A DNA stretch of 63,769 nt, filler included, from Craspedostauros australis (lineage: Eukaryota): assembly GCA_030167865.1 (NCBI GenBank). It is 7 parts of 7 records of this genome, joined end to end, with 100 filler letters (N's around TTAATTAATTAA, not from the genome) between each part and the next. Parts side by side here need not be neighbours in the genome. Positions count along the whole stretch, not along the records: positions 6,279 to 14,909 come from JALAGF010006330.1; 6 more parts are not named here. The stretch is one strand, 5' to 3'. A program made the translations under genes and the position numbers. The notes under the pieces are model-generated. The model saw only the letters and a program-made list of their open reading frames with translations, was not told where the DNA came from and did not search any database. Of this stretch, positions 6,179 through 63,769 are shown in pieces (position 1 is the first letter of the stretch; each line of letters opens with the position of its first letter).

Positions 6179-6278
6179 NNNNNNNNNNNNNNNNNNNNNN
6201 NNNNNNNNNNNNNNNNNNNNNNTTAATTAATTAANNNNNNNNNNNNNNNNNNNNNNNNNNNNNNNNNNNNNNNNNNNN
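6179..6278. other. Artificial contig linker (also 14910-15009, 20766-20865, 26247-26346, 56654-56753, 62535-62634)
   Basis: About 44 N + TTAATTAATTAA (stops in six frames) + 44 N. Confidence 0.97.
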
Positions 6279-6361
6279 CCAAGTGCGTATGAGAGAATAG
6301 CGGGTGAACGATGCACATATACTCGTACATCTCGACATATACTCACATGTACATCTCGACA
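6279..6361. repeat. LTR terminus, same family as 1-81, inserted downstream of the host integrase
   Basis: Near-identical to 1-81 over 81 nt; ends in CA. Confidence 0.7.
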
Positions 6362-7045
6362 TCTCTGGAGACGAGTCTCTTGATGATGAGTCGTCGTCTG
6401 CGTTCATCACTCTGGATATGTTGGCATCCTTGATACCCTTGAACTCTCCATACGACTTATTCAACCATGTTACGTCTCGAGTCATCAGGATTCTCGAGGT
6501 AGCAAGGTTCATCATNNNNNNNNNNNNNNNNNNNNNNNNNNNNNNNNNNNNNNNNNNNNNNNNNNNNNNNNNNCGGTCGTCTAGCTTGGCCTTGATAGTC
6601 TGTCCACCGATGTGTACCATCCCCATTTCACCGAACACACGCAGGTCATTTGCATACTTTGGGATTTTTCCGTTTAACAGTATACACGCTGGTTCCCTTG
6701 ACTTCGTGCCAATGATGTTCTCCAGCTGCGTCGCCGTGTGAGCAGCCTCTGCCCACAGCTTCCCTCGCGTTGTTTTTGGTAGATGGGTTTGGTTCAGCAT
6801 GGCGCGTACTTTGCCGTAGAGTGTCGCGAATTTCCTTTCGACNNNNNNNNNNNNNNNNNNNNNNGATGCCGCAGTGTACTCGAAGGTTGGGGCGAATCCC
6901 TTGTTAAGTAAGAGTTTCTCTGTAGAACGATTCTCTCCTGCGTTGTCACATCTGACATTTTGAACCGTTACTCGCGGATTCGCTTGGAGCCATTGGAACA
7001 ACAAAAGCATCTTCGACCCCACGTCGCCTTTCTCTGTGATGAAGT
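6362..7045 (-). pseudogene. Integrase core/C-terminus of the host Copia element, continuing from 12428
   Basis: VRCDNAGEN, VERKFATL, LWAEAA, LRVFG, KLDD, TRDVTW. Rejoins ...DDYSDYCWSYF once the nested element is removed. Confidence 0.9.
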
Positions 7046-7321
7046 TGTTGGTGTTTGTGGTGGCCAAGGTCCACGTGGCAGAGCAGAAGAGCACAACAAT
7101 GACCCAAATGACCGGGCAGAGGCAAAGATACGCAGCCGCGGAGCACAGCACGACGAAGCACGAAGCACGGCAACAGCAAGAAGCAAGAAAACAACCCCAT
7201 AAAATCAAACAAACAGTATCCGACGAAACAACCACACGTGAACTCGCACAGTGCATGCTCTGGCTCCACCCTTCAGCTCAGAGCTGAGTAGGGAACCGTG
7301 CACACCGCTGTTGCATCAACA
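7046..7321 (+). repeat. 5' LTR
   Basis: Direct repeat of 12152-12427. Confidence 0.97.
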
Positions 7322-7337
7322 TACTGTTTGTTTGATT
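7322..7337 (+). promoter_or_regulatory. Primer-binding site complementary to the element's own LTR (7203-7218)
   Basis: TACTGTTTGTTTGATT is the exact reverse complement of AATCAAACAAACAGTA; no TGG start expected for a tRNA 3' end. Confidence 0.75.
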
Positions 7338-7355: not shown

Positions 7356-10300
7356 ATGAGCAGCGACGTCAAGCCACCCAACCCGGCAAAGCCGAAGGCA
7401 GAAGGTGGCAGCAACAACAACAACAACAACAAAGGCAAACAACGCAACAAGCCGTACACCCCGTTCGCAAAGCCCGCCAAGTTCGAAGGCGCGTGCGCAG
7501 ACCTGAAGGGACACGTCTTTGATTGTGCTGCCGTCCGATCAAGACAAGTCGATGAGTACAGCAAGACCATCGAAGCCATCACCACATACGTGGGGACACA
7601 ATACGGACCACTCATCAGCATGGCGGTGGAGAACCTCACCGAACCAACCATCAATGAACCAGACGACTATCCTGCCAATGCGACAGACATTCAAAAGGAC
7701 AAATGGAAGCGGCAATACGCCCTCTACACAACACGCCTGCTCAACGCTGAGACCGATTACCAGAAGGTGTATTCGCTAGTCTGGGGCCAATGCTCCGATA
7801 TCATGCGCACCAGGATCCAAGAATCCGATGACTACACATCCACATCCACCAGCCGCAACACTGCTGGCCTCCTCAAGATCATCAAGAGCGTGGTATTCAA
7901 TTACCAAACGCACGAGCAGGGCACAGTTGCAGCATGCATGATCATGCAAGAACTCATGGGGCTTCGCCAAAAGCGACGACAGCCAGTGCAGGAGTACTAC
8001 GAGTCTTTCCTGAACCTCTCCGAAGTCAACGACTCAATCAAGACCTCCATCTCCGAAGTGGGCTGCATCATCGAAGCAGTCACCAAGGACAGATCGATCA
8101 CCAGTCCAAGCGCAGCACAGAAGAAGATCATCGCAGCTGCTGCCAAGCAGCGGTTCCTGGCGGTGCAATTCATCCTCGGAGCAGACCGCCACCGTTTTGG
8201 TTCTCTCATCGAGGAGCTACGCAACGACCACATCAAGGGGTCAGACCGTTACCCAACAACCATGGTTGCAGCACTCACCATGCTCAGCCATTGGTCGAAG
8301 GATCCACGTAACGTCCCCGGCATCCACACTCCAAAGGATACCGGGATGGCCTTCGTGAATGCCGATACAACCAAGGCGACATGCACACGCTGTGGGCGCT
8401 CCAACCACACTGATGAGCAATGCCACGCGAAGTACCACAGCAATGGCACTGTACTGGTACACAGCACAGAGGAATGCGACAACAACGACTTCGTGTTCCT
8501 CCATGCTCACATGTCCGGGAGTGCTGCACATACACACAATCAAGACACTGGCATCATCCCACGTTCGTGGATCCTACTCGACAACCAGTCAACCGTGGAT
8601 GTCTTCAGCAACCATCAGCTGCTCAAGGACATCCACACAACCAACAACGCACTCACCATCCACTGCAACGCCGGCACCGCCACCACCAACCAGCGCGGCA
8701 CCCTCCCTGGATACGGCGATGTCTGGTATCACCCCACAGGCGTTGCCAACATCCTCTCACTAAGCAAGGTGAAGGGTCGCTTCCGGGTCACATATGACAG
8801 CACTGGCGCCAACAGTTTCACTGTACACAAAGAGGATGGGTCAACACAGTCATTCCGCGAGTCGGCAGGAGGACTGTTCTACCTTGACACCGGCCGCATC
8901 ACGGGAGTGACAATGATTAGCACTGTAGACGATAACAGAAATAGCTTCTCGTCATTCGATTACTCGCAGGCCAAGCTGGCCAGGTCCATTCAACAACGTA
9001 TAGGTCGTCCCACCTCGCGCAACTTCATTCGATATGTGCACAATGGCCTCATCCCCAACTGTCCCATCACCACCAAGGATATCCGCACTGCTGACCTCAT
9101 CTTTGGTCCAGATGTGGCATCCTTGAAAGGGAGGACTGTCAGACAGGTGTCGCCAGCTGTTCGTGCACAGATTGCACAGCTACCAGCAAACATCATGCAA
9201 CAGTACCGAGACGTGCAGCTGTCGGTTGACATCATGGTCGTCAATGGCATCAAGTTCCTTGTGTCTGTTGCGAAACACATCAAGTTTGGAACGGTCACGA
9301 AACTGGACTCGGCGAGCAACAAACACCTCAACACGCAATTCAACAAATTGATACAACTCTACAAGCAACGTGGGTTCCGCGTCACCATCATCATGGTTGA
9401 TAACCAGTTCGAATCCCTTCGTGGCGACCTGGCGGAACATGGAGTCAGTATCAACGTTACGTCCAGGGACGAGCATGTGCCTGAAGTCGAGCGCTACATT
9501 CGTACCATCAAGGAGAAAACCAGATCGACATATCACAGCCTACCATTCAAGCACTACCCACCAATGCTCATCATCGAGATGGTCAACCACTCAGTCTTCT
9601 GGCTCAATATGTTCCCACATCCCAATGGAGTGAGCAAGCGGATGAGTCCGTCTGAGATAGTGGTCGGGCGAAAGATCGACTACAACACACATTGTCGGAT
9701 TGAGTTCGGCAGCTATGTGCACACTCATGAACAACATGATAACACCATGCGACCAAGAACAGTCGGAGCCATCACACTCCGACCATCCGGCAATGTTCAG
9801 GGCGGGCACGTATTCTTCAGCCTCGAGACCGGTATGCGAATCCATAGACGATCATGGACAGAGCTGCCCATGACACAAACAGTCATCGATCGTGTCCACG
9901 CAATGGCGAAGGCAGCCAAAGCAAACAAACAACTGAACTTTGCCACTCAGCGAGGTCTCGAGTTGTATCCCATTGCTGATGATGATGACAGCGATGATGA
10001 CAATGATGATCAATCCGATGCCAGCGACAGCCACGACGACGATGATGATGATGATGACGACTTCAGTGACGACGATGACGAATCCAGTGATGAAGACGAT
10101 GACGATGATGACTCCAACGACACAAGCAACGATGAATCCGATGAGGACTCCATTGACAGCGATGACGACAACAACGATGGAGACATCAATGAGGACCCAG
10201 ATGGCCCAATCTATGACATCCAACCAATCGCCGGCCAAGACAACGAACCAGATGTCTTCGATGACCCACAAGAGGATGCACAAGAGGAACAACCAAACAT

Positions 10301-12308
10301 CCAGCCAGCCCCTGCAACGACGTCCACGCATCACATGACCACGCGCAGAGGGCCACGAATTGACTACCGCCAACTACACAGCACAGGGCGCGGTGACACG
10401 CACGCCACAGTCACGGTGCTCTCTAATGAGCCCACTGAGGAAAACATCGAGCAACACAACGAATGCGTTTTTGTGACAGAACAGATGAACTGGAAGCGCG
10501 GACTCAAGCTGTTTCAGGAACGCGGTGAAGACGCAATCAGCAAGGAACTGGAGCAGGTACACGAGATGGATGGTTTCGAACCAAAACATTGGCATCAGCT
10601 GACTCGCGACGAAAGAGCCAAGTCCCTGCGGTACCTCATGTACCTGAAGGAAAAGCGGAACGGTATCATCAAGGGACGCGGGTGTGCTGACGGACGGAAG
10701 CAGCGCCTATACCTCACCAAGGAGGAAACCAGCTCGCCTACAGTCTCACTGCTCGGACTGATGCTCTCATGCGTGATTGATGCACATGAAGGACGTGACG
10801 TTGCGACCGTTGACGTGCCAGGAGCGTTCCTGCAGACCACATTCGACAAGGGCGATGTGGTTCATGTGCTCATCGAAGGACGGATGGCGGAACTATTGGC
10901 AAAGGTGGCTCCTGATGTGTACGCAGAATATGTGCACAAGAAACGTGGACAGTCGGCTATCTACGTGAAGCTTACAAAGGCACTATATGGCACACTGAAG
11001 GCGGCGCTACAATGGTGGAAAGACTTGACGGCGACACTGGTTGCTGACGGATTCACCATCAACCCATACGACTGGTGTGTCGCCAACAAGCACATCGATG
11101 GCAGTCAATGCACTGTCGTGTGGCATGTGGACGACTTGAAAATTTCCCACATCAAGTCATCGGCTGTGAGTGACGTGATCACCATGCTCAATGATGCCTA
11201 CGGGAAGCGCACTCCACTCACCGTTCACAGAGGAAAGCAACACGAATATCTGGGCATGACACTTGACTACTCTGAGCCTGGTGAGGTGAGAATCGATATG
11301 AAAGAATACATCGACGGCATTCTTGCAGGAGTGCCTGCCAACATGGATGGCCATGCCGTCACACCAGCTGCCAACCACCTATTCGAAGTCAACAACAACG
11401 ATCCCACTCTTCTGGATGACGACACCAAGGAGATGTTCCATCACATCGTGGCCAAGCTCCTTTTCCTGTGCAAGCGCGCACGTCCCGACATTCAAACCGC
11501 CATCTCATTCCTTTGCACCCGCGTGAAGAGCCCTGATGAGGATGATTACAAGAAATTGGCACGTACAATCAAGTACCTCCGCGCAACCCGACACCTCACT
11601 CTCACACTTGGTGGGTCCTGTCTCAGTGACGTACAATGGTGGGTGGACGGTGCCTTTGGCGTCCACAACGACATGCGCAGCCACACGGGCGCACACATGT
11701 CGACAGGAGCAGGAGCCATCTACGCCACATCGGCAAAACAGAAGCTCAACACAAAGAGCTCCACGGAAGCTGAGCTTGTGGCTGTGGATGATGTGATGCC
11801 CCAGGTGCTGTGGGTTCGCTACTTCCTTCAAGAGCAAGGCGTCGCAGCCAAACCATCAACCATACATCAAGACAACCAAAGCGCGATGTTGCTGGAGAAC
11901 AATGGGCGGCGATCCAGTGGCAAGCGCACTCGGCACATCAACATTCGATACTTCTTTGTGCACGACAGAATCCAAAACAAGGAGGTGACAGTCCAATATT
12001 GTCCCACCGATGACATGATTGGTGATTTCTTCACGAAGCCTCTGCAGGGATCGAAATTCCGGGAATTCCGGAACGCAATACTCAACCTCAGGCCGACTGC
12101 TGCCAACAAGGCCAAGACATACAAGGAAGCCCTGTTGACATCACAGGAGTGTGTTGGTGTTTGTGGTGGCCAAGGTCCACGTGGCAGAGCAGAAGAGCAC
12201 AACAATGACCCAAATGACCGGGCAGAGGCAAAGATACGCAGCCGCGGAGCACAGCACGACGAAGCACGAAGCACGGCAACAGCAAGAAGCAAGAAAACAA
12301 CCCCATAA
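7356..12308 (+). CDS. Gag-Pol polyprotein (1650 aa): Gag, Zn knuckle, protease, integrase, RT, RNase H
   Basis: CTRCGRSNHTDEQC; WILLDNQST; VDNQFE/EHVPEVER; KGRGCADG, DVPGAFL, ALYG, WHVDDL; STEAEL, QDNQSA, DFFTKPL; Copia domain order. Confidence 0.95.
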   Translation: MSSDVKPPNPAKPKAEGGSNNNNNNKGKQRNKPYTPFAKPAKFEGACADLKGHVFDCAAVRSRQVDEYSKTIEAITTYVGTQYGPLISMAVENLTEPTINEPDDYPANATDIQKDKWKRQYALYTTRLLNAETDYQKVYSLVWGQCSDIMRTRIQESDDYTSTSTSRNTAGLLKIIKSVVFNYQTHEQGTVAACMIMQELMGLRQKRRQPVQEYYESFLNLSEVNDSIKTSISEVGCIIEAVTKDRSITSPSAAQKKIIAAAAKQRFLAVQFILGADRHRFGSLIEELRNDHIKGSDRYPTTMVAALTMLSHWSKDPRNVPGIHTPKDTGMAFVNADTTKATCTRCGRSNHTDEQCHAKYHSNGTVLVHSTEECDNNDFVFLHAHMSGSAAHTHNQDTGIIPRSWILLDNQSTVDVFSNHQLLKDIHTTNNALTIHCNAGTATTNQRGTLPGYGDVWYHPTGVANILSLSKVKGRFRVTYDSTGANSFTVHKEDGSTQSFRESAGGLFYLDTGRITGVTMISTVDDNRNSFSSFDYSQAKLARSIQQRIGRPTSRNFIRYVHNGLIPNCPITTKDIRTADLIFGPDVASLKGRTVRQVSPAVRAQIAQLPANIMQQYRDVQLSVDIMVVNGIKFLVSVAKHIKFGTVTKLDSASNKHLNTQFNKLIQLYKQRGFRVTIIMVDNQFESLRGDLAEHGVSINVTSRDEHVPEVERYIRTIKEKTRSTYHSLPFKHYPPMLIIEMVNHSVFWLNMFPHPNGVSKRMSPSEIVVGRKIDYNTHCRIEFGSYVHTHEQHDNTMRPRTVGAITLRPSGNVQGGHVFFSLETGMRIHRRSWTELPMTQTVIDRVHAMAKAAKANKQLNFATQRGLELYPIADDDDSDDDNDDQSDASDSHDDDDDDDDDFSDDDDESSDEDDDDDDSNDTSNDESDEDSIDSDDDNNDGDINEDPDGPIYDIQPIAGQDNEPDVFDDPQEDAQEEQPNIQPAPATTSTHHMTTRRGPRIDYRQLHSTGRGDTHATVTVLSNEPTEENIEQHNECVFVTEQMNWKRGLKLFQERGEDAISKELEQVHEMDGFEPKHWHQLTRDERAKSLRYLMYLKEKRNGIIKGRGCADGRKQRLYLTKEETSSPTVSLLGLMLSCVIDAHEGRDVATVDVPGAFLQTTFDKGDVVHVLIEGRMAELLAKVAPDVYAEYVHKKRGQSAIYVKLTKALYGTLKAALQWWKDLTATLVADGFTINPYDWCVANKHIDGSQCTVVWHVDDLKISHIKSSAVSDVITMLNDAYGKRTPLTVHRGKQHEYLGMTLDYSEPGEVRIDMKEYIDGILAGVPANMDGHAVTPAANHLFEVNNNDPTLLDDDTKEMFHHIVAKLLFLCKRARPDIQTAISFLCTRVKSPDEDDYKKLARTIKYLRATRHLTLTLGGSCLSDVQWWVDGAFGVHNDMRSHTGAHMSTGAGAIYATSAKQKLNTKSSTEAELVAVDDVMPQVLWVRYFLQEQGVAAKPSTIHQDNQSAMLLENNGRRSSGKRTRHINIRYFFVHDRIQNKEVTVQYCPTDDMIGDFFTKPLQGSKFREFRNAILNLRPTAANKAKTYKEALLTSQECVGVCGGQGPRGRAEEHNNDPNDRAEAKIRSRGAQHDEARSTATARSKKTTP

Positions 12309-12427
12309 AATCAAACAAACAGTATCCGACGAAACAACCACACGTGAACTCGCACAGTGCATGCTCTGGCTCCACCCTTCAGCTCAGAGCTGAGTAGGGA
12401 ACCGTGCACACCGCTGTTGCATCAACA
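12152..12427 (+). repeat. 3' LTR
   Basis: Direct repeat of 7046-7321, preceded by CACAGGAGTG. Confidence 0.97.
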
Positions 12428-14174
12428 GAAGTAACTCCAGCAGTAGTCACTGTAATCGTCGATCACAAGAAGCCAGTATTTGCCCCTTCCCAGGCTGTGT
12501 GTCTGAACACTNNNNNNNNNNNNNNNNNNNNNNNNNNNNNNNNNNNNNNNNNNNNNNNNNNNNNNNNNNNNNNNNNNNNNNNNNNNNNNNNNNNNNNNNN
12601 NNNNNNNNNNNNNNNNNNNNNNNNNNNNNNNNNNNNNNNNNNNNNNNNNNNNNNNNNNNNNNNNNNNNNNNNNNNNNNNNNNNNNNNNNNNNNNNNNNNN
12701 NNNNNNNNNNNNNNNNNNNNNNNNNGTCGGTTGACACACCAACATGAGCTTGGTCGTCGGCCTTGGCATTGCTCACCATGTTCACTCCGCAAACGAAGCC
12801 GCTCTGGGTCGCCATGATGCGGTCGAAGCTGATGCGCACGCTGCCCTTCTTCAGGCTGATCACGATACCGCGGTTGCTAATGTCGAACCCATTTTCGAGA
12901 GCTTTATTGATGCTCAGCAGGTTCACCCACAGCTTCGGCACGTACTTCACTGACTTGAGTACGACGATGGATGTCCTTCCATTCTTCTGCATGACGGTCA
13001 TGCGCTTGTCCCCCACCTTGGTTGCCTTGAGGAAGCGTCCGTTTCCGATCTTCACCGATTGGTCGGAGACTTGGACGTTGGTCATTCCTTCGTCGCTGTT
13101 GGTGAGATGGCATGATGCGCCTGAATCGCCTAGCCAGGTGTTGCTTTCGTAGTGGTCTGGTGCGATGGCGGATCTCTTCGCGTCGACGTCGTTCACGTTC
13201 CCGATCATCAGAGCCACCTCGTGGCCCTCGTCGTGTTCCATGTAGAGTGGCAACACCGAGAGTTCTGGCTTCGAGTCTTGGACCCCTTTGTCGCTATCGT
13301 GATGCATCCAGAGGATGGAATGCGTAGCGTGGAGGGTCATGTGCGAGATCAGGTCGTGGGGGAACGGGTTGAAGTGGTGAAACTCCAGGCTGTTGTTGAT
13401 GTTGCACGGATTGCGACAGACGCTGATCACGTTGAACATCCCGATCTCGTGGAGTTGGAAGTACACCGATCGTGCTTCGACTTGTGGAGGGTATGCGCCC
13501 GTGTAGGTTCCAACTGCATCATAGCACAACAAGGCGAGTTCAGATCGCACGTCATTGGCTGTAAGCACGTTGCTCAATGATGCTCGGACAGCACAGCGGA
13601 GAGACCCTGCTCTTGCGAGAAAGGCGCGTCGCTCCGCGCGTTCCGCGTCGTTGGTTGGTACATCACCGCGTGGCTCGTTCGCGAGCTGGATGAAAAAGGG
13701 GACTTCGGCGCATTCCACACACCATGCGTATAGCAGACCACGCTTGAGGCACAATGGGCACCAAGCCGTGTTGGTGAGGAGTCGTGCAGACTCTTCGATC
13801 ATGCCGTCTACATAAGAGCGCTCGGGGGCAAAGTTGTAGACGGGGAGGCGGGCTGCGCCGCGTTGGTTGCCCTCGCCCATGTCGTCATCGGCGTCCTCGG
13901 TGTCGGTGGCCCCTTCGTTGGTGAGGCTTGCATTGTAGTAGGACTCTTGTCCTGGGTTGGAGTTGCTCATCTTGTTGTTGACGTTGTGTGGTCTCAAGGA
14001 AACAATGGGAGATGTGTCAGTCTGTTCGACGATGGCTGCAAAGGCGACATCTTCCATTACGTTGGAGTCGGATTGATTGTTGCTTCCGATGTCGCGTGTT
14101 TTCCCTCGTCTGCGTTCACAGACAAGTTGGTCACATTTTCCAATTCGTTCGTGTTTCCCGAGGTGGGGACACAA
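12428..14174 (-). pseudogene. Pol (extra domain, protease, integrase start) of the host Copia, disrupted by the nested insertion
   Basis: WLGDSGASCH protease; VKYVPKLWVNLLS; KYWLLVIDDYSDYCWSYF. Confidence 0.9.
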
Positions 14175-14909
14175 ATTAGCTCATCTGTCATCACAAGAGC
14201 CACGTCGTTGTTTCCCTCCATCCCATCAGTCGCCACATTGGCCGAGTCTGCCTCCTTCATGGCTGCTTTCAGCTCGAAGCACTGTAGGATCTTGTGTCCC
14301 TTCTTACCGCAGTACTTACACTCCCCGTTGAACTTGGGCTTGCTGTTGTTGTCTCCTTGGCCACTCTTCTTGTTCTTGCCGTTGCCTTTCTTAGGGGCGG
14401 AGCGGCAGTCTGCTTTCTTGTGGCCGTAGGCACCACAGTTGCGGCAGTGACCTTTGAAGCCTCCTACTGCAGCGAATGCAGTCTCTTCCTTGTTACTATT
14501 GTTCTCACGTCTATTGCCGCCGAGTTTGAGGTATCGGCCGTCGTAGGTGGCACTGACAGCCTCGCGGATGTCTTCGAGGGTCATGGTATTCTCCATACCG
14601 TCGAACTTGAGCTCCAAGAGCTTCACGTCCGTCTCGTATTCCCTTCCGAGGGCGTTGAGTACGAGCATGTGGTACTGTTGCATATCCATCTTGATGCCAG
14701 TACTACCGAGGCGATTACGCAGCACTTCCATCTCAGTTAGGAACGTGTCTGGGTGTTCACCTTTCTTCAACCGCATCCCGTTGAGTTGAGCCAACAACTT
14801 TGCCTTGACAGGCGCAGTACGCTGTTCGTAGATGCGTTCAAGGGCCTTCCACGCCTTGCGTGGGTCTCCACTCTCAGTGGGCCCGCCCTTGGTTCCCACC
14901 ACAGCCATG
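14057..14909 (-). CDS. Gag of the host Copia with two CCHC zinc knuckles, 5'-truncated by the contig end
   Basis: AWKALERIYE; CRNCGAYGHKKADC; CKYCGKKGHKILQC. Confidence 0.9.
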
Positions 14910-15009
14910 NNNNNNNNNNNNNNNNNNNNNNNNNNNNNNNNNNNNNNNNNNNNTTAATTAATTAANNNNNNNNNNNNNNNNNNNNNNNNNNNNNNNNNNN
15001 NNNNNNNNN

Positions 15010-19183: not shown

Positions 19184-20392
19184 CTAATTAGTAGTGTTTG
19201 TGTGTTGTGCATCTGCACGGGCGATGGCACGTTCGCGTGCTTCTTGCATCGCGACAACCACGTCAAACGAGGGGAAACCGTTGCTCAATTCAATTTGCGT
19301 CACGATGGCAACCGCGTTGAATGCAAGGCGATGCTTGTCCACGTGGTGCCGCCACTTCAGGTGCATGCATTGCCAGTGCTTGATTCGCCTGTTGACCGTT
19401 TCGTGGCGGCACCGCATGATCCCATCCGCGCGAAAAGTTGGGGGGAACACACAAGGGTCCCCACGGTATCCGGCGTCTGCGACGACGACTTCGTGTTGCN
19501 NNNNNNNNNNNNNNNNNNNNNNNNNNNNNNNNNNNNNNNNNNNNNNNNNCATGCATTGCCAGTGCTTGATTCGCCTGTTGACCGTTTCGTGGCGGCACCG
19601 CATGATCCCATCCGCGCGAAAAGTTGGGGGAAACACACAAGGGTCCCCACGGTATCCGGCATCTGCAACGACGACTTCGTGCTGCACTAATTTCGGTTTC
19701 AGTCCCAGACGGAAGATCGAGAGATCGTTCAGCAGGCCACACGGGAAAGGCCCATTCGCCCAAACGATCTCACCAGTGGAAATCGCAACAGCCAACTCAT
19801 AACACAAACCAGAAGCGCGAAACTTGAACGAGTACCACTTCTGGCTAAACGGTTTGGGTTCGGTGATTCGCATGTCAGTCCCGTCCACAGTGACAAGCGC
19901 TTTTGCATCGTGACTTGCGCCAANGAAACGACGGTTCCAGACAATCTGTCAATTGGAGCGGTACCAGGAAAAATCAGAACCATGTGTGAGTGAATGGAGT
20001 GAACAGAATTTTGTGTTGCAGTTCGGGTGTGCGAATTTATTAGTACTTACAATGCGATCCTTAACGGTTTCAACGGCTTCCATCATTAGCCACATCCATT
20101 TCCGAAGTGTTTTGGCAGAACACTTGCACATGGTGGCNAGNGCAGTCTCAGACACGTACAGNCGAAGAAACGCGCACGTCCACAGGAGATGTTTCGGTTT
20201 CGCCGTGAGTGGCAGAGCTCGCGCATGACAGAGCTCGTTCCACAAGATGTGCACGATGTCAGGATGCGTTCCGAACACGGATGCGAACTGTCGCAGTGCC
20301 TCCCTGGAAAGGTTGTTTGTGTCCAAGCCTCTTGGGCGTGACCCAATCAACCCGAACCCCACGGTGGCAAAAGTTCCACTTGGTAGAAGCAT
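19184..20392 (-). CDS. DDE_Tnp_4 (PIF/Harbinger-ISL2EU-like) transposase; exons 20392-20051 and 19945-19184
   Basis: VDGTD, WYSFKF, WANGPFPCG, ADAGYRG, RHETVNRRIK; GTAAGT...ACAG intron of 105 nt restores the frame. Confidence 0.85.
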
Positions 20393-20865: not shown

Positions 20866-22665
20866 TCTGCAGCATTCTTGGACTTCATGACTTTGATGCC
20901 GATATGGCCAGGAGCATTTGGGATGGTGGAGAAGTAGCTGAACCGAAGGTTCGCAATATCGTCACAGCGACCAATAAGATGGAATTGCAACTTGAAAAAT
21001 GCGGTGAGACTGTACGCAGCGACATCATCGCTGGAGTCAGCGAGCATAGACAGGACCTGTTCAAACTCTTCGAGCTCAAATGGTTCCCTCTCGCTCCCCT
21101 CCTTGCAATCTCCTTTCTTTTCCAGCTTCTTGACTGCATTGATCACATCCCAGACAGGCTGACTGCGGCATGGATTACCAACCTCGTGTCGATTGGACCA
21201 TCTATTTTCCCCATCAATCATGATGCTGGAGATAGCAGAATAGTAGCCCCTCAGTGTTCCAAGCCTCGCATAGGAGGATGAGGCACCAGGAGCAGGATTC
21301 TCTGTTCCAAATGCCTTCTTGCGCAAGAAGTTGGCAATGTGCACAGGACGGACAGCATCGTACTGCTCACGAGTGAAGGGAAGCACTCCCTTCTTGATCT
21401 CCTTGATGTCGTCTCTGGTGAATTGCAGATCGAAGACATATGCCATGAATGCAATCACCTTCGCGTTTTTGCTTTGCTGTGCTGTAGATACAGTATGCAC
21501 AGTGCAAGCAGCTGCAGTAGTCTCAACCGCGGCGCCAGTATTGGCAGTGTTGGGTTCGGCGGCGAGCGTAGCAGCGGGCGCAGTGGTGGGTGCATCAACG
21601 ACCATTGCTCCAGGTCCAGTAGCAGGAACTGCAGTGGGTGGAGCAGGAAGCACCGTGGTGGGCACAGCGGCGGGTGCAGCGACGGGTGCAGCNNNNNNNN
21701 NNNNNNNNNNNNNNNNNNNNNNNNNNNNNNNNNNNNNNNNNNTCTGCAGCATTCTTGGACTTCATGACTTTGATGCCGATATGGCCAGGAGCATTTGGGA
21801 TGGTGGAGAAGTAGCTGAACCGAAGGTTCGCAATATCGTCACAGCGACCAATAAGATGGAATTGCAACTTGAAAAATGCGGTGAGACTGTACGCAGCGAC
21901 ATCATCGCTGGAGTCAGCGAGCATAGACAGGACCTGTTCAAACTCTTCGAGCTCAAATGGTTCCCTCTCGCTCCCCTCCTTGCAATCTCCTTTCTTTTCC
22001 AGCTTCTTGACTGCATTGATCACATCCCAGACAGGCTGACTGCGGCATGGATTACCAACCTCGTGTCGATTGGACCATCTATTTTCCCCATCAATCATGA
22101 TGCTGGAGATAGCAGAATAGTAGCCCCTCAGTGTTCCAAGCCTCGCATAGGAGGATGAGGCACCAGGAGCAGGATTCTCTGTTCCAAATGCCTTCTTGCG
22201 CAAGAAGTTGGCAATGTGCACAGGACGGACAGCATCGTACTGCTCACGAGTGAAGGGAAGCACTCCCTTCTTGATCTCCTTGATGTCGTCTCTGGTGAAT
22301 TGCAGATCAAAGACATATGCCATGAATGCAATCACCTTCGCGTTTTTGCTTTGCTGTGCTGTAGATACAGTATGCACAGTGCAGGCAGCTGCAGTAGTCT
22401 CAACCGCGGCGCCAGTATTGGCAGTGTTGGGTTCGGCGGCGAGTGTAGCAGCGGGCGCAGCGGTGGGTGCATCAACGACCATTGCTCCAGGTCCAGTAGC
22501 AGGAACTGCGGTGGGTGGAGCAGGAAGCACCATGATGGGCACAGCGGCGGGTGCAGCAATGGGAGCTGCGATGGATACAGCGTTGAGCGTAGCAGTGGGC
22601 GGATCAGCAGCAGCCACGACGGAACGCGCAGTTGGATTGGCGGTGGGATTGGCGGTGGTGGTCAT
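20866..22665 (-). CDS. Crypton-like tyrosine recombinase, N-terminal half (present twice through assembly duplication; 3'-truncated)
   Basis: GNPCRS...VINAVKKLE and QFHLIGRCDD (first catalytic Arg), similar to stramenopile Crypton recombinases; no RT visible on the contig. Confidence 0.7.
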
Positions 22666-26690: not shown

Positions 26691-26773
26691 ACGAAAAATT
26701 GATGTCTAAAAATATCACGTTTCAGTATCTCAAATCCGCAGAATAATACTCGACTTCGCTGAATGGGGCCCTA

Positions 26774-27474
26774 CGTAGCATGCGTCCGGACGCAAATTGA
26801 ACGCTCAGTTTGCGTCCCGACACAAATTGGGCCAATTTGCGTCCGGACGCAAATGTAAGGTCGCCGAAAATACCACTTGTACTACTTAAGTCCCATGTTT
26901 CTCCACNNNNNNNNNNNNNNNNNNNNNNNNNNNNNNNNNNNNNNNNNNNNNNNNNNNNNNNNNNNNNNNNNNNNNNNNNNNNNNNNNNNNNNNNNNNNNN
27001 NNNNNNNNNNNNNNNNNNNNNNNNNNNNNNNNNNNNNNNNNNNNNNNNNNNNNNNNNNNNNNNNNNNNNNNNNNNNNNNNNNNNGGTTCCTTTCCGTGCG
27101 CCTGTCTTGCTTTTCTGACGTCATGGGATCTAAGGTAATGATTTTTTACTTTTTGATTTCGATGTCATCCACCACGCTCCTGACAACAACACCAAAATCC
27201 TGGCAAGGGTGTAACACAACAAGGAGGGTGGACCACGAATCATGATTATTGTTTGTTCAATTACCGCAACTTTAGCGATTATTATCGATGTAAGACATGA
27301 GTCATGTCGTGAGTCGAGATGGCCAGCGAAAAAGGGTTTGAAAAAAAAAACGGCTTCTCGTAAAGCGTATTTGGGCTAGTCCTTTGAGTCGCCGATTGCG
27401 TCCGGACGCAAATTGGCCCAATTTGCGTGGGGACGCAAACTGCACCTCCAATTTGCGTCCGGACGCAAGGTACG
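26774..27474. mobile_element. MITE with ~80-bp imperfect TIRs built from TTGCGTCCGGACGCAA palindromes, flanked by TA
   Basis: About 26774-26852 versus reverse complement of about 27396-27474; TA at 26772-73 and 27475-76. Confidence 0.8.
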
Positions 27475-28734
27475 TAGGCCAGTACCAGGCCAAAATCATT
27501 AGGGATATGTACCTTTAGTCTTACCTGTTCCATATTTTTGTTATGTCTGTGCTGTCCACTGTTACACAGTGGTGCGCGGCATTCCTTCGCTTTCTTTCTT
27601 CCGCACCCCTGCTCACGTCACACACCAGCCTTGCGAACAAATAAAATACGCGAACATCAACAACGAATTGTCGCGTCATATTGGACTTTATGTATTTCTC
27701 CATGTAGTTATGTCATTGGTGTTGGCGGTTATTCGCGGATGTGGATGCATGCAGCGTTTCATGAAAGAGAATTCGGAGACTCGCAATGGTGCCGGTTGTC
27801 TTTTCCTGCATACAGAACGGAGTTCGCACGTTCTGCCGGTTTGCTTGAAGAAACTCCGTCTGCAACAACACAACATATTTGCGTAGACTACCGGTTGCCT
27901 AGAGGCTAGAGAGAGATAGTATACCTGGAGATTGCCGCTGTACAGCCACAAGTACACGTAACTACGAGTACACGTATCTATTATCTGCGCAAGCAACACT
28001 CTATATCACGAGCACAGACACACTCACATGCTTAGACCAAACGTCCAAGCACCACGACCAAAGTCTATCCGAAGGGATGCGTAGCGCTCGATTCTCTTTC
28101 ATGGATTTTAACTTCGTTCATGTCACCCCTTCTTGAGACGTCAAGGCTCTCGTCGCTCACCCTCTTGACTGCGCAATGCGATAATAACATCCTCGTACTC
28201 GCAATGCGATAATAACATCCTCGTACTCGCAATGCGCGCCACCTATGGACGAGCGCGACCAGAGCCCGAGGACTGCGGAGAGTATTACTTTCGGCGGTTG
28301 CGTCCATGAAGTAATCATTTGGTTGGAAAAAGTCCGGTGTGCCACACGTTCACGTTGCGTCTGCATCTGCGCCACGCGAGTTACTCGTGCGACTGCGAGC
28401 TAATGGTCCACTCTTGCTACCACGACCACGACCTGCGCAGTTTGTGGGTTTTGTGACGCGCGTGCCGCATTGTGTGCACGAATTCACAAAGCCCAAAAAC
28501 TCCACAGAGAGAGAGAGAGAAAAAGTGATGATGGGAAACTGCATGACGAGTGGTGTCAACTGTCGCAAAGGACCCCACCGGATAAAATCTGTTGCGTGTG
28601 TGTCCAACTATCACGCGTCGCCACCACACGACCACACAATTTGCATAAAAACTGCGAAACAGAAACCGCACATCCGATTCGATCATAAAAACAAGCCAGA
28701 GCAACAGCAGCAACAACATCAACAACAAGCCAAG

Positions 28735-59800: not shown

Positions 59801-61402
59801 CATTTCCGCGAATGCCCGGGATGTGTACAGCTCACCACCATGATCCACTCGAATGGCACGGTAGCCGTCCTTCCGACCGAACCGTTGGAGGTGTGTACGC
59901 ACCACATCAACTGGAGTGCTCTTGCCTTCGGTGTTAAACACCCACGCGTACCTCGAGTATGCATCCACGATGAGCAGATATGCAGTACATCGGTCAAAGG
60001 ATTCCACCACTGCCGGCATGTTCTTGACTTTGGCGTACTGAGACGAGCTCGCACGCATGTAGCCGAAGTCCATATGGAATCGAGAACCAACCGCCAGAGC
60101 GGAAACGTCAGCAGTAGGACCTCTCGGCTGTCGNTGTGCACGGGCCTCCATGCACGTGGTGCACATGCGGACCGGATGTTGACCGGTTGCAACCTTGGCG
60201 GGGATGCCCACAGAGTGTTGCGGAAGATGTACCATCTGATGATGCCCAGGATGTCCAAGGCGCTGATGCCACAGCTCGTAGGTGAGGGCTTTGTTTCCAG
60301 TAGATGCTGTCACGCTGTGTACAGAGTACAGAGCCATGAAAAAGTAGAGGTCGTTGATCCTCACCATGGAAGCGCGCTTGGAGAACTTGTGTGCGTTGCC
60401 ATAGAACCTGACATGGGGGTCATTACGATCCCTGCACACCACATCGAAGGTGTCATACACCGCCGAGTGCTCACAGATGAGCTGTGGAGAGAGAAGAGTG
60501 GCCGAGACGTGCTGGCAGAAGTACATCGGGATGGGGATGACATCGCCATCGTCGAGCCGGAATGGAAAGACACCACGGTGTGTGCACACCATAGCACCTG
60601 ACCTGACGTCGGCGCCGGATAGGTCGAGTGGAAGGTCGAGTGGNNNNNNNNNNNNNNNNNNNNNNNNNNNNNNNNNNNNNNNNNNNNNNNNNNTCACGCT
60701 GTGTACAGAGTACAGAGCCATGAAAAAGTAGAGGTCGTTGATCCTCACCATGGAAGCGCGCTTGGAGAACTTGTGTGCGTTGCCATAGAACCTGACATGG
60801 GGGTCATTACGATCCCTGCACACCACATCGAAGGTGTCATACACCGCCGAGTGCTCACAGATGAGCTGTGGAGAGAGAAGAGTGGCCGAGACGTGCTGGC
60901 AGAAGTACATCGGGATGGGGATGACATCGCCATCGTCGAGNCNGAATGGAAAGACACCACGGTGTGTGCACACCATAGCACCTGACCTGACGTCGGCGCC
61001 GGATAGGTCGAGTGGAAGGTCGAGTGGNGTCACGTCCGCAAGGACGTGTTTGGCATTGGTGACTGAGATGTTGGCACCCAAGTCGCACTGCTGGCGGGCA
61101 GCGCTGTTGAATCCGCCAACCGGTGTCACATGATGGAGCAGTGGAACGCTGTGTATACGTTCATGACCACCGCTCGCCTCATGGGCAATGACACATGCGA
61201 TGCTTGGCCCTTCAGGCACGAGCATGTGCCACTCAGTCGGCTGCGCGGGTGGCTTTGGAAGCACCTGCGAGGTCGACTGAGTACCATGGGCCTGTGATGG
61301 CGCAGGCAGTATGCCAACGGAGTTGGCTGGCCCTGAATCTACCGCGCNTNCATGTGTGATAAGCCGTTCACCAGCAGAAGGATGTGCTGGCCGGCTTAGG
61401 AA
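56824..61402 (-). CDS. Pol: protease, integrase, PDZ-like insert, RT, RNase H
   Basis: CDLGANIS; LWHQRLGH..CTTC; IRVDHGGEL, NGKAER; RKARAVCDGS, DVSNAF, RQVDDF; YADSDWA, STEAEL, YEDNQGA. Confidence 0.9.
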
Positions 61403-62634: not shown

Positions 62635-63769
62635 GCTTCAGCTTGAAGACCCATTTGCACTTGCAGCATCTGCGGCCGCGTGGGATGGCGTCTCGTTTGA
62701 TCTTGCTATACACCTTGCATGTATCCATGGAGTCGAACTCCTTCTTGATGGCTGTTCGATATCCCTTCCGATGGATAGGATCTGGGTGATTGAAGGCTCC
62801 GTCGAACGTTGTAGGTTCGATGTGCTTCTCTGGTTCCTTNTTCTCGTCCTGCATCGACANTCCGATGTCGATCGCTGGTGATTCGGTAATGATTGCATTC
62901 ATTCCGTATAGTCCTGTTGTGCTATGATGAGTGATCTCGATCTCTTCATTTTCGTCTTTGATTTCTTCATCATCTGTAGTTTCGTTGTTGGAATCGTCGA
63001 TCATCTCGTCGCTGAGTTCGTCACTCGTCTCGTTGGATGATGGATCGCTCTCATAGCCTTCTTCCTTTCGACCTCGTTCNNNNNNNNNNNNNNNNNNNNN
63101 NNNNNNNNNNNNNNNNNNNNNNNNNNNNNGTCCTGTTGTGCTATGATGAGTGATCTCGATCTCTTCATCTTCGTCTTCGATTTCCTCATCATCTGTAGTT
63201 TCATTGTTGGAGTCGTCGATCATCTCGTCACTGAGTTCGTCACTCGCCTCGTTGGATGATGGATCGCTCTCATAGCCTTCTTCCTTTCGACCTCGTTCGT
63301 TGAAGTCTGCGAGCTCGCGTAGAGCTCTGGGAACACTCTTCCCTGCAGTTGACTTGGGATTAGCTTCTCCCTTCCTGCCTCGTGCTTCATGACGTCGGAT
63401 CCTCTCCTTTCTAGCTATGTCACGCTTGTTTGGTTTGCTTGGTGGAGATCTGGATGGTGTGTCATGTGTAGATCTCGCTGGTGTGTTCGGAGGAGTGACA
63501 CCTGTCTCGTCATCGGCTTCGTCGCCGGAGGGTAGGATTTCGTCATCCTCATGATTGGATTCGCTCCAATCTTCCTCGTCATTCTGGATTAGTTGAGTCA
63601 CTACTCCGTCGTCCTCATTATCCTCATCGTCGCTGTCCGATAGGATGTAGTACCTGTTGCTGTCAGCGAAAGATACTCTCTTCGTTTCCGATGTTTGACG
63701 CGTTGCCGTCCTTGGCGTTGCTCCCTTCCGTCCGATGGTTGTGAAGCCGTCTGCGTCCGTTGTTCCTGT
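62635..63769 (-). CDS. Copia Pol fragment: acidic IN-RT linker and RT N-terminus
   Basis: EPTTFDGAFNHPD..AIKKEFDSM..CKWVFKLK. Confidence 0.88.

Follow-up and report, generated by a model that had tools for sequence, protein, structure and literature searches.

How does an LTR retrotransposon begin reverse transcription when the sequence directly behind its 5′ LTR is complementary to that same LTR and lacks the hallmark of a tRNA-type PBS? The question arises from a Ty1/copia element of the diatom Craspedostauros australis, carried on a stretch of 63,769 nucleotides (GenBank assembly GCA_030167865.1) that was analysed whole and is called the window below. An initial annotation of the window had proposed that this element primes from its own RNA, independently of tRNA, and had described Copia elements as normally tRNA-primed. 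Comparison with relatives leads us to consider it likely that an element of a large, diatom-associated Ty1/copia clade starts reverse transcription with its own RNA in the manner of Tf1, as a prediction from sequence.

Tf1 is an established case of self-priming, and the same mode is inferred for the Tf1/sushi group of Ty3/gypsy elements (chromoviruses); as the cited sections describe, the first 11 bases of Tf1 pair with the primer-binding site (PBS), and cleavage by RNase H falls between bases 11 and 12 (PMC7175516). The premise that Copia elements are tRNA-primed holds for most lineages, but self-priming has already been predicted for the plant TAR lineage of Ty1/copia (Neumann et al. 2019, PMC6317226); the relevant passages refer to a previous proposal of this kind, made for Houba and Osr-1. 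The literature searched contained no description of self-priming in diatoms, and the initial annotation knew of no demonstration in this lineage, but TAR means that the case is not the first for Copia. In that literature, which included Llorens 2009, Filloramo 2021 and the main text of Maumus 2009, we found no statement on priming or the PBS of diatom Copia elements; the terms primer binding, tRNA, priming and PPT are absent from the Maumus 2009 main text, as are PBS and self-prim from Llorens 2009.

An intact and recently inserted Ty1/copia element

The element is delimited by the one clear LTR pair of the window, and self-BLAST of the window returned no other. Its LTRs, with termini TGTTG...CAACA, are 100% identical over 276 nt each, are flanked by a GAAGT target-site duplication and enclose a single gag-pol open reading frame (ORF) of 1,650 amino acids (Table 1). 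Integrase lies before the RVT_2 reverse transcriptase (RT), which is the Copia domain order; the element is thus a member of Ty1/copia (Pseudoviridae), intact and recently inserted, as the annotation's "young, intact" Copia had it. The ORF extends 157 nt into the 3′ LTR, where its stop (TAA, 12306–12308, corresponding to 7200–7202 of the 5′ LTR) directly precedes the copy of the proposed primer arm.

Searches of ORF sub-regions against Pfam, at E values up to 5, gave no match for integrase, protease or RNase H. Integrase was recognized from an AlphaFold model of residues 530–870 (14-row alignment A4; mean pLDDT of 74), which matched the integrases of PFV, MVV, RSV and HIV (Foldseek E = 2.5e-9, probability 1.00). 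In the Gag zinc knuckle, C343, C346, H351 and C356 are invariant among 44 sequences (alignment A1, comprising the query and 43 homologues). At the expected protease position (residues 405–417, approximately 8570–8600), the conserved sequence is W-x-L-L-D-N-Q-S-T-V-D, not the canonical D-T/S-G, with L408, D409, S412 and T413 of this block invariant in the same 44 sequences. The A1 profile gave only weak Gag and zinc-knuckle matches to PDB sequences, with the Copia virus-like particle (VLP) protein 8vvw at E = 0.014. A long, acidic, low-complexity linker rich in Asp, Ser and Glu separates integrase from RT (residues ~890–1000, ~10020–10350) and differs in length and sequence across the family alignment.

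The insertion, at GAAGT, placed the element inside another, distinct Copia-like element that lies on the minus strand (6231–7045 and 12433–14909). The enclosing element has a gag-protease ORF at 12447–14057, beyond which gag-like coding sequence extends as far as the gap at 14910, and its integrase-like ORF resumes at 6231–7045; no LTR or PBS of the enclosing element is visible between the gaps.

Table 1. Coordinates of the element in the window and of loop-length variants in related contigs
Feature	Position	Strand	Remarks
5′ target-site duplication, GAAGT	7041–7045	+	identical 5 nt at 12428–12432
5′ LTR, 276 nt	7046–7321	+	100% identity to 12152–12427
U3-like part of LTR, promoter inferred	7046–7202	+	U3/R border inferred; fully coding in the 3′ copy
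5′ arm, proposed self-primer	7203–7219	+	16 nt pair with the PBS, plus T7219 with the last LTR base
TCAAA, matching the diatom initiator-like TCAH+1W	7205–7209	+	predicted +1 at 7208
Predicted long R-U5 stem-loop	7246–7314	+	minimum free energy (MFE) fold of 7203–7337, −45.1 kcal/mol; tip is the palindrome 7273–7287
Putative PBS	7322–7337	+	perfect complement of 7203–7218; begins at first base past the LTR
Single intact gag-pol ORF, 1,650 aa	7356–12308	+	674 homologues at E ≤ 1e-3
Gag CCHC zinc knuckle, aa 342–367	8379–8456	+	Pfam zf-CCHC_5, E = 2.1e-5, 24.6 bits, under the curated cut-off of 27
Integrase, aa 530–870	8943–9965	+	AF2 model and Foldseek, not Pfam
Copia-type reverse transcriptase, aa 1083–1324	10602–11327	+	Pfam RVT_2 PF07727, E = 2.6e-11, 44 bits, cut-off 31.6
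Short polypurine tract, AGGAG plus TG	12145–12151	+	adjoins the 3′ LTR, within the ORF
3′ LTR	12152–12427	+	contains ORF stop 12306–12308 and primer-arm copy 12309–12325
3′ target-site duplication, GAAGT	12428–12432	+	matches 7041–7045
Arm-loop-PBS variant, L024	754–837
Arm-loop-PBS variants, L030	4674–4759; 9876–9961
Arm-loop-PBS variant, L031	3962–4047
Arm-loop-PBS variant, L058	3584–3656
Arm-loop-PBS variant, L066	1914–1974
Arm-loop-PBS variant, L028	3562–3741

The putative PBS pairs with the LTR of the same element

Read directly from the sequence, the complementarity described by the initial annotation is exact: the 16 nt following the 5′ LTR (TACTGTTTGTTTGATT) are the reverse complement of 7203–7218 (AATCAAACAAACAGTA), and T7219:A7321 extends the pairing to 17 bp, with 7202 and 7338 unpaired. 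Because the two LTR copies define the LTR end, the 3′ arm can be said to start at the last LTR base. When the 400 nt preceding the ATG were shuffled 200 times with dinucleotides preserved, the longest inverted repeat (loop of 30–300 nt) measured 11 nt and no shuffle reached 17, which excludes chance for the pairing. The annotation had also seen no tRNA-like PBS; TGG, the expected first bases of a PBS that pairs with a tRNA 3′ end, does not occur in the sequence following the 5′ LTR. ARAGORN found no tRNA gene in the window.

Perfect inverted repeats of at least 12 nt with loops of 15–250 nt number only three in the whole 63.7-kb window, and the remaining two belong to an unrelated repeat at ~26.8/27.4 kb. 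There, two inverted ~83-bp copies (26770–26852 and 27396–27478; 90% identical, ~550 bp apart) contain perfect inverted repeats of 19 and 21 nt; the copies are composed of palindromic TTTGCGTCCGGACGCAAA-like sub-repeats and resemble the termini of a short element of the foldback or MITE-like type.

The same signature recurs in all testable relatives

A protein search with the ORF returned 674 homologues (E ≤ 1e-3), the best 120 of which share 37–64% identity with it and are mostly metagenome proteins on contigs of ~5.2–5.9 kb. Among named homologues, those of two diatoms, Fistulifera solaris and Fragilaria crotonensis, score best (41–44% identity), and it is solely from these two that the clade would be attributed to diatoms; in this it is like the CoDi and CoDi-like elements, which are likewise Ty1/copia elements of diatoms (Maumus et al. 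2009; Llorens et al. 2009). Scanning of a metagenome contig collection (metagenome_contigs) with A1 matched at least 650 stretches, of which at least 612 proved on confirmation to be relatives, and the 80 best, corresponding to 78 loci, were kept; the same scan of viral_contigs gave 120 pattern matches and 0 relatives. Many of the metagenome contigs show matching ends or circular permutation, the outcome to be expected if the assembler collapses both LTRs. None of the 78 loci ends in polyA or starts with polyT, and contig ends were not taken as RNA ends.

The gag N-terminus was matched by tblastn in 31 of the 78 loci, starting at query residue 46 or before in 26. In 21 of these 26, the longest perfect inverted repeat upstream of gag (700-nt search window) places its 3′ arm at or right after the conserved CAACA and its 5′ arm ~90–110 nt further upstream (L058 and L066 have shorter loops). 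The 5′ LTR of four more (L008, L010, L035 and L040) is cut by the contig start, and their PBS complements (14, 14, 14 and 15 nt, respectively) were recovered either from the copy in the 3′ LTR or by reading over the circular join; L037, whose sequence opens 6 nt upstream of the PBS and includes no 3′ LTR, was left out of the testable set. A perfect complement of the element's own LTR therefore lies directly after the LTR end in 25 of 25 testable gag-bearing loci, and the same signature occurs in 8 loci without a gag N-terminal match by residue 46 (L004, L019, L023, L024, L028, L030, L031 and L038). The other 45 loci (44 fragments and L037) were excluded as tests.

An unbiased scan of all 78 loci (368,649 nt; perfect repeats of at least 12 nt, loops of 15–200 nt) retrieved 39 repeats, 30 of which, across 29 loci, bear the signature; their LTR ends include the variants CAACT (L058) and TAACA (L020 and L033). 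The remaining nine are short (12 nt), consist of low-complexity AGCT or are located elsewhere (L062, L063 and L064). The 400-nt window used for the shuffles missed the repeat in L016, L026, L027, L032 and L036, because their estimated ATG lay 344–460 nt downstream of the PBS; the 700-nt window finds it. LTR ends are set by two LTR copies only in the window and in L005 and were otherwise inferred from the TGTTG/CAACA termini; the LTR start reads AGGAGTG/TGTTG in 14 of 22 representative relatives and AGGAGTG/CGTTG in one more.

The polypurine tract and the first LTR bases lie within the pol ORF, and relatives read AGGAGTG/TGTTG as a conserved R-S-V-L; in the window element these bases are translated in a different frame (Q-E-C-V-G-V), which runs through all of U3 to the TAA that abuts the arm. 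A stop codon abutting the primer arm was considered as a family trait and rejected, since the ORFs of 15 relatives in the R-S-V-L frame end 17–248 nt into the LTR, and their distance to the primer arm varies. Long direct repeats that span LTR, PBS and gag start in L022 (7240–16237) and L030 (4500–10706) suggest tandem arrays of elements with a shared LTR.

Primer arm and PBS change together

The window and the 29 loci from the unbiased scan provide 22 distinct PBS 13-mers, to which the four loci with a cut 5′ LTR add four, giving 26 PBS versions, the window included. All 26 are perfect complements of their own LTR, none starts with TGG and many are pure A/T, among relatives that share 36–63% protein identity; complementarity in relatives, which the initial annotation had proposed as a check, is thus present in every testable relative and covaries. 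By PBS position, pairing is Watson–Crick in all 22 families at positions 1–13, in 21 at position 14 (the lone exception being T:G) and in 6 at position 15. Cognate runs measure 13–17 nt (mean 14.4, mode 14), against a mean of 1.7 nt and a maximum of 8 nt for the 462 non-cognate combinations of arm and PBS. Near relatives capture the change in small steps, with L014 and L018 differing by one compensated pair and L016 and L023 by three.

Without guidance, RNAalifold predicts the primer/PBS helix from 24 leaders, with 14 of 14 pairs compensated. The MAFFT alignment (A2) placed several 5′ arms out of register, so pairs were counted in a register anchored on the LTR end, and alignment-based pair counts were restricted to a better-aligned subset of 10 families (A3). 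In A3, 89.5% of cells pair, as opposed to 32–53% (maximum 52.9%) in slid registers; 25 of 27 pairs show double changes, and none of 500 shuffles reached the observed value of any of five measures.

Wobble pairs are absent from this helix. One-sided changes occur in none of its 15 pairs in A3, as against U:G cells in 6 of the 12 pairs of two U5 hairpins, and in MFE folds of the 22 families G:U accounts for 0 of 325 pairs of the closing helix versus 69 of 603 internal pairs. The argument is partly circular, because the arms were found as perfect repeats and an element bearing G:U would be missed; this is mitigated by the perfect repeat found in every testable locus. Recopying of the PBS from the primer in each cycle would explain why pairing stays perfect and free of wobble as the sequence drifts.

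Leader architecture and the predicted start of transcription

The consensus of the 10 families comprises three helices, namely the primer/PBS helix, a 4-bp hairpin that immediately follows the primer and an 8-bp U5 hairpin, after which ~6 unpaired nucleotides (TCAACA) lead to the PBS; both hairpins show compensatory changes. The leader of the window element folds similarly by MFE, with a long stem-loop (7246–7314) where relatives have a covarying hairpin. The annotated hairpin TCAGCTC-A-GAGCTGA accordingly survives in altered form: the palindrome is present (7273–7287), but a 1-nt loop is impossible, and the palindrome is instead the tip of this stem-loop. Loops between the arms may be as short as 27 nt (L066), 45 nt (L058) or 52 nt (L024, L030 and L031), with U5 structure absent or reduced in these five families, or as long as 150 nt (L028). 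These variants keep the pairing, so the internal U5 hairpins are not universal and appear dispensable or replaceable.

TCAH+1W has been proposed as an initiator-like motif of diatoms, in the sections cited here (Kadono et al. 2015, PMC4686930). The +1 of this motif is the base opposite PBS position 14 in 14 of the 22 families, position 15 in two and position 18 in one; four have GCA, CCA or TTA at the TCA register. Since the limit of pairing falls at the +1 in 14 of 22 families, the paired block is probably the first 14 nt or so of the RNA, as far as motif positions can indicate. In most relatives CTCA precedes the arm; it is absent from the window element, whose TCA is inside the arm. There the motif puts +1 opposite PBS position 11, with pairing continuing to 7203, so that transcription may start at 7208 rather than at 7203. 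With the TCA inside its arm, the length of the window element's primer is uncertain (11 or 16 nt). A start upstream of 7203 is also compatible with the self-priming model.

A self-priming model and its alternatives

In the mechanism that we propose, transcription would begin at or just before the 5′ arm (approximately 7203–7208 in the window), and the RNA 5′ end would fold back onto the PBS, closing the structured R-U5 leader. The element's RNase H would then cut past the paired block (after 7218 or 7219) and free an RNA primer, predicted at ~14 nt across families and 11–16 nt in the window, whose extension through 7321, 7320 and onward would give minus-strand DNA starting 5′-TG. Plus-strand strong-stop DNA would subsequently copy the primer, rewriting the PBS from it in every cycle. 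The standard model of plus-strand strong-stop synthesis is the basis for this predicted recopying. The tRNA-independent priming put forward by the initial annotation thus remains a prediction, one that the 25 of 25 loci and 26 versions support.

Could the helix be merely structural, serving packaging, dimerization or translation control, with another primer starting the minus strand? It does close a conserved multi-helix leader whose small hairpin and U5 stem-loop both covary. We nevertheless regard this reading as unlikely: in every family, the base immediately past the LTR, where a PBS has to lie, is also where the 3′ arm starts; no further conserved block follows the LTR and no alternative primer site is visible; and a structural helix would be expected to tolerate G:U as the adjacent hairpins do, whereas its 15 pairs show no one-sided change. 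Were a host tRNA or an internal fragment of one the primer, which is the situation in Drosophila copia, Osser and Bianca, the LTR match would be incidental. Most Ty1/copia lineages do use tRNA-Met or half-tRNAs, by the account in the sections cited (PMC6317226), but a conserved tRNA would keep the PBS constant, whereas here each family has its own and many are pure A/T; that the PBS is family-specific and never starts with TGG argues against any conserved primer acting in trans, and with all 26 versions perfectly matched to their own LTR we judge tRNA priming highly improbable.

Self-priming might also follow another geometry, with transcription starting well upstream and an internal block being cleaved out, or with pairing in trans between co-packaged RNAs. 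In the window, pairing reaches 5 nt upstream of the initiator-like +1, and contig L047 starts 26 nt before the arm, though contig ends are not RNA ends; the data are compatible with pairing in cis and in trans. The sharp stop of pairing at the TCA/H border in 14 of 22 families is best explained by RNA that starts there, however, and we hold such geometries to be quite unlikely. Priming from the paired 5′ end of the element's own RNA is accordingly the reading that we carry forward.

Relation to known priming systems

As in Tf1 and Tf2 of Schizosaccharomyces pombe, insofar as the cited sections describe them, the PBS beside the 5′ LTR complements the 5′ region of the element's own RNA and is not of the tRNA type; as in Tf1, R-U5 contains the paired block, ~100 nt upstream, and a U5 stem-loop separates the arms. 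The element works like Tf1 but stands outside the Tf1/sushi group, as integrase precedes the RVT_2 RT and the order is not RT-RNase H-IN. It further differs from Tf1, by the same partial comparison, in being Copia rather than Gypsy and in the length of its block (13–17 nt, mode 14, versus 11 nt in Tf1), and cleavage and priming are here predicted. The plant TAR lineage, which includes Houba and Osr-1, resembles it as a Ty1/copia group with self-priming predicted from sequence, in TAR likewise a prediction, and differs in belonging to another host kingdom and probably another lineage. GalEa, a fungal Copia in which a Conserved Hairpin Site replaces the PBS (Donnart et al. 2017, PMC5445492), is similar in that it is a Copia without a tRNA-type PBS and, in the portion of that report cited, its conserved structure starts at the last A of the 5′ LTR. 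The GalEa site is, however, a local palindrome and hairpin for which its authors, in that same portion, found no complementary U5 sequence (PMC5445492); here the partner is a distant LTR block and a local palindrome is not needed. Set against the parts of these reports considered here, the diatom Copia elements would represent a new lineage for a known mechanism, Tf1-type self-priming.

Implications

A broader reading, which we offer tentatively and rate as possible rather than probable, is that a deep and widespread diatom Ty1/copia clade has abandoned host tRNAs, each family having a private primer/PBS pair of ~14 nt that begins at the transcription start, is rewritten every cycle and drifts freely as an address against cross-priming. 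If so, the family-specific address would block cross-priming among co-resident families, in line with non-cognate pairing of at most 8 nt, and Tf1-like priming would have either arisen independently in the clade or been retained from an ancestral self-priming state of LTR elements, depending on the place of the clade in the Copia tree. Self-priming of the Tf1 type, shown experimentally only in a Ty3/gypsy group, would extend to a large Copia clade of algae. The evidence from comparison is unusually clean, with the families serving as natural compensatory mutants, and it yields a sharp prediction, namely a transcription start at the first paired base (7203–7208 in the window).

The case also bears on whether tRNA priming was a late acquisition in LTR elements, for which a self-priming ancestor has been suggested, in the sections cited (Benachenhou et al. 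2013, PMC3601003). Pipelines that require a tRNA-type PBS, of which the LTRdigest filter in the Cyclotella cryptica annotation is an example in the cited part of that report (PMC7466962), would discard the clade, so that transposon censuses of diatoms may be biased.

Assembly features of the window

Near-identical duplicated blocks flank N gaps in the window (for example, 19364–19685, 20866–22557, 60310–61027 and 62911–63298). The N runs are interrupted by TTAATTAATTAA and, together with the flanking duplicated blocks, look like artefacts of assembly or scaffolding rather than biology.
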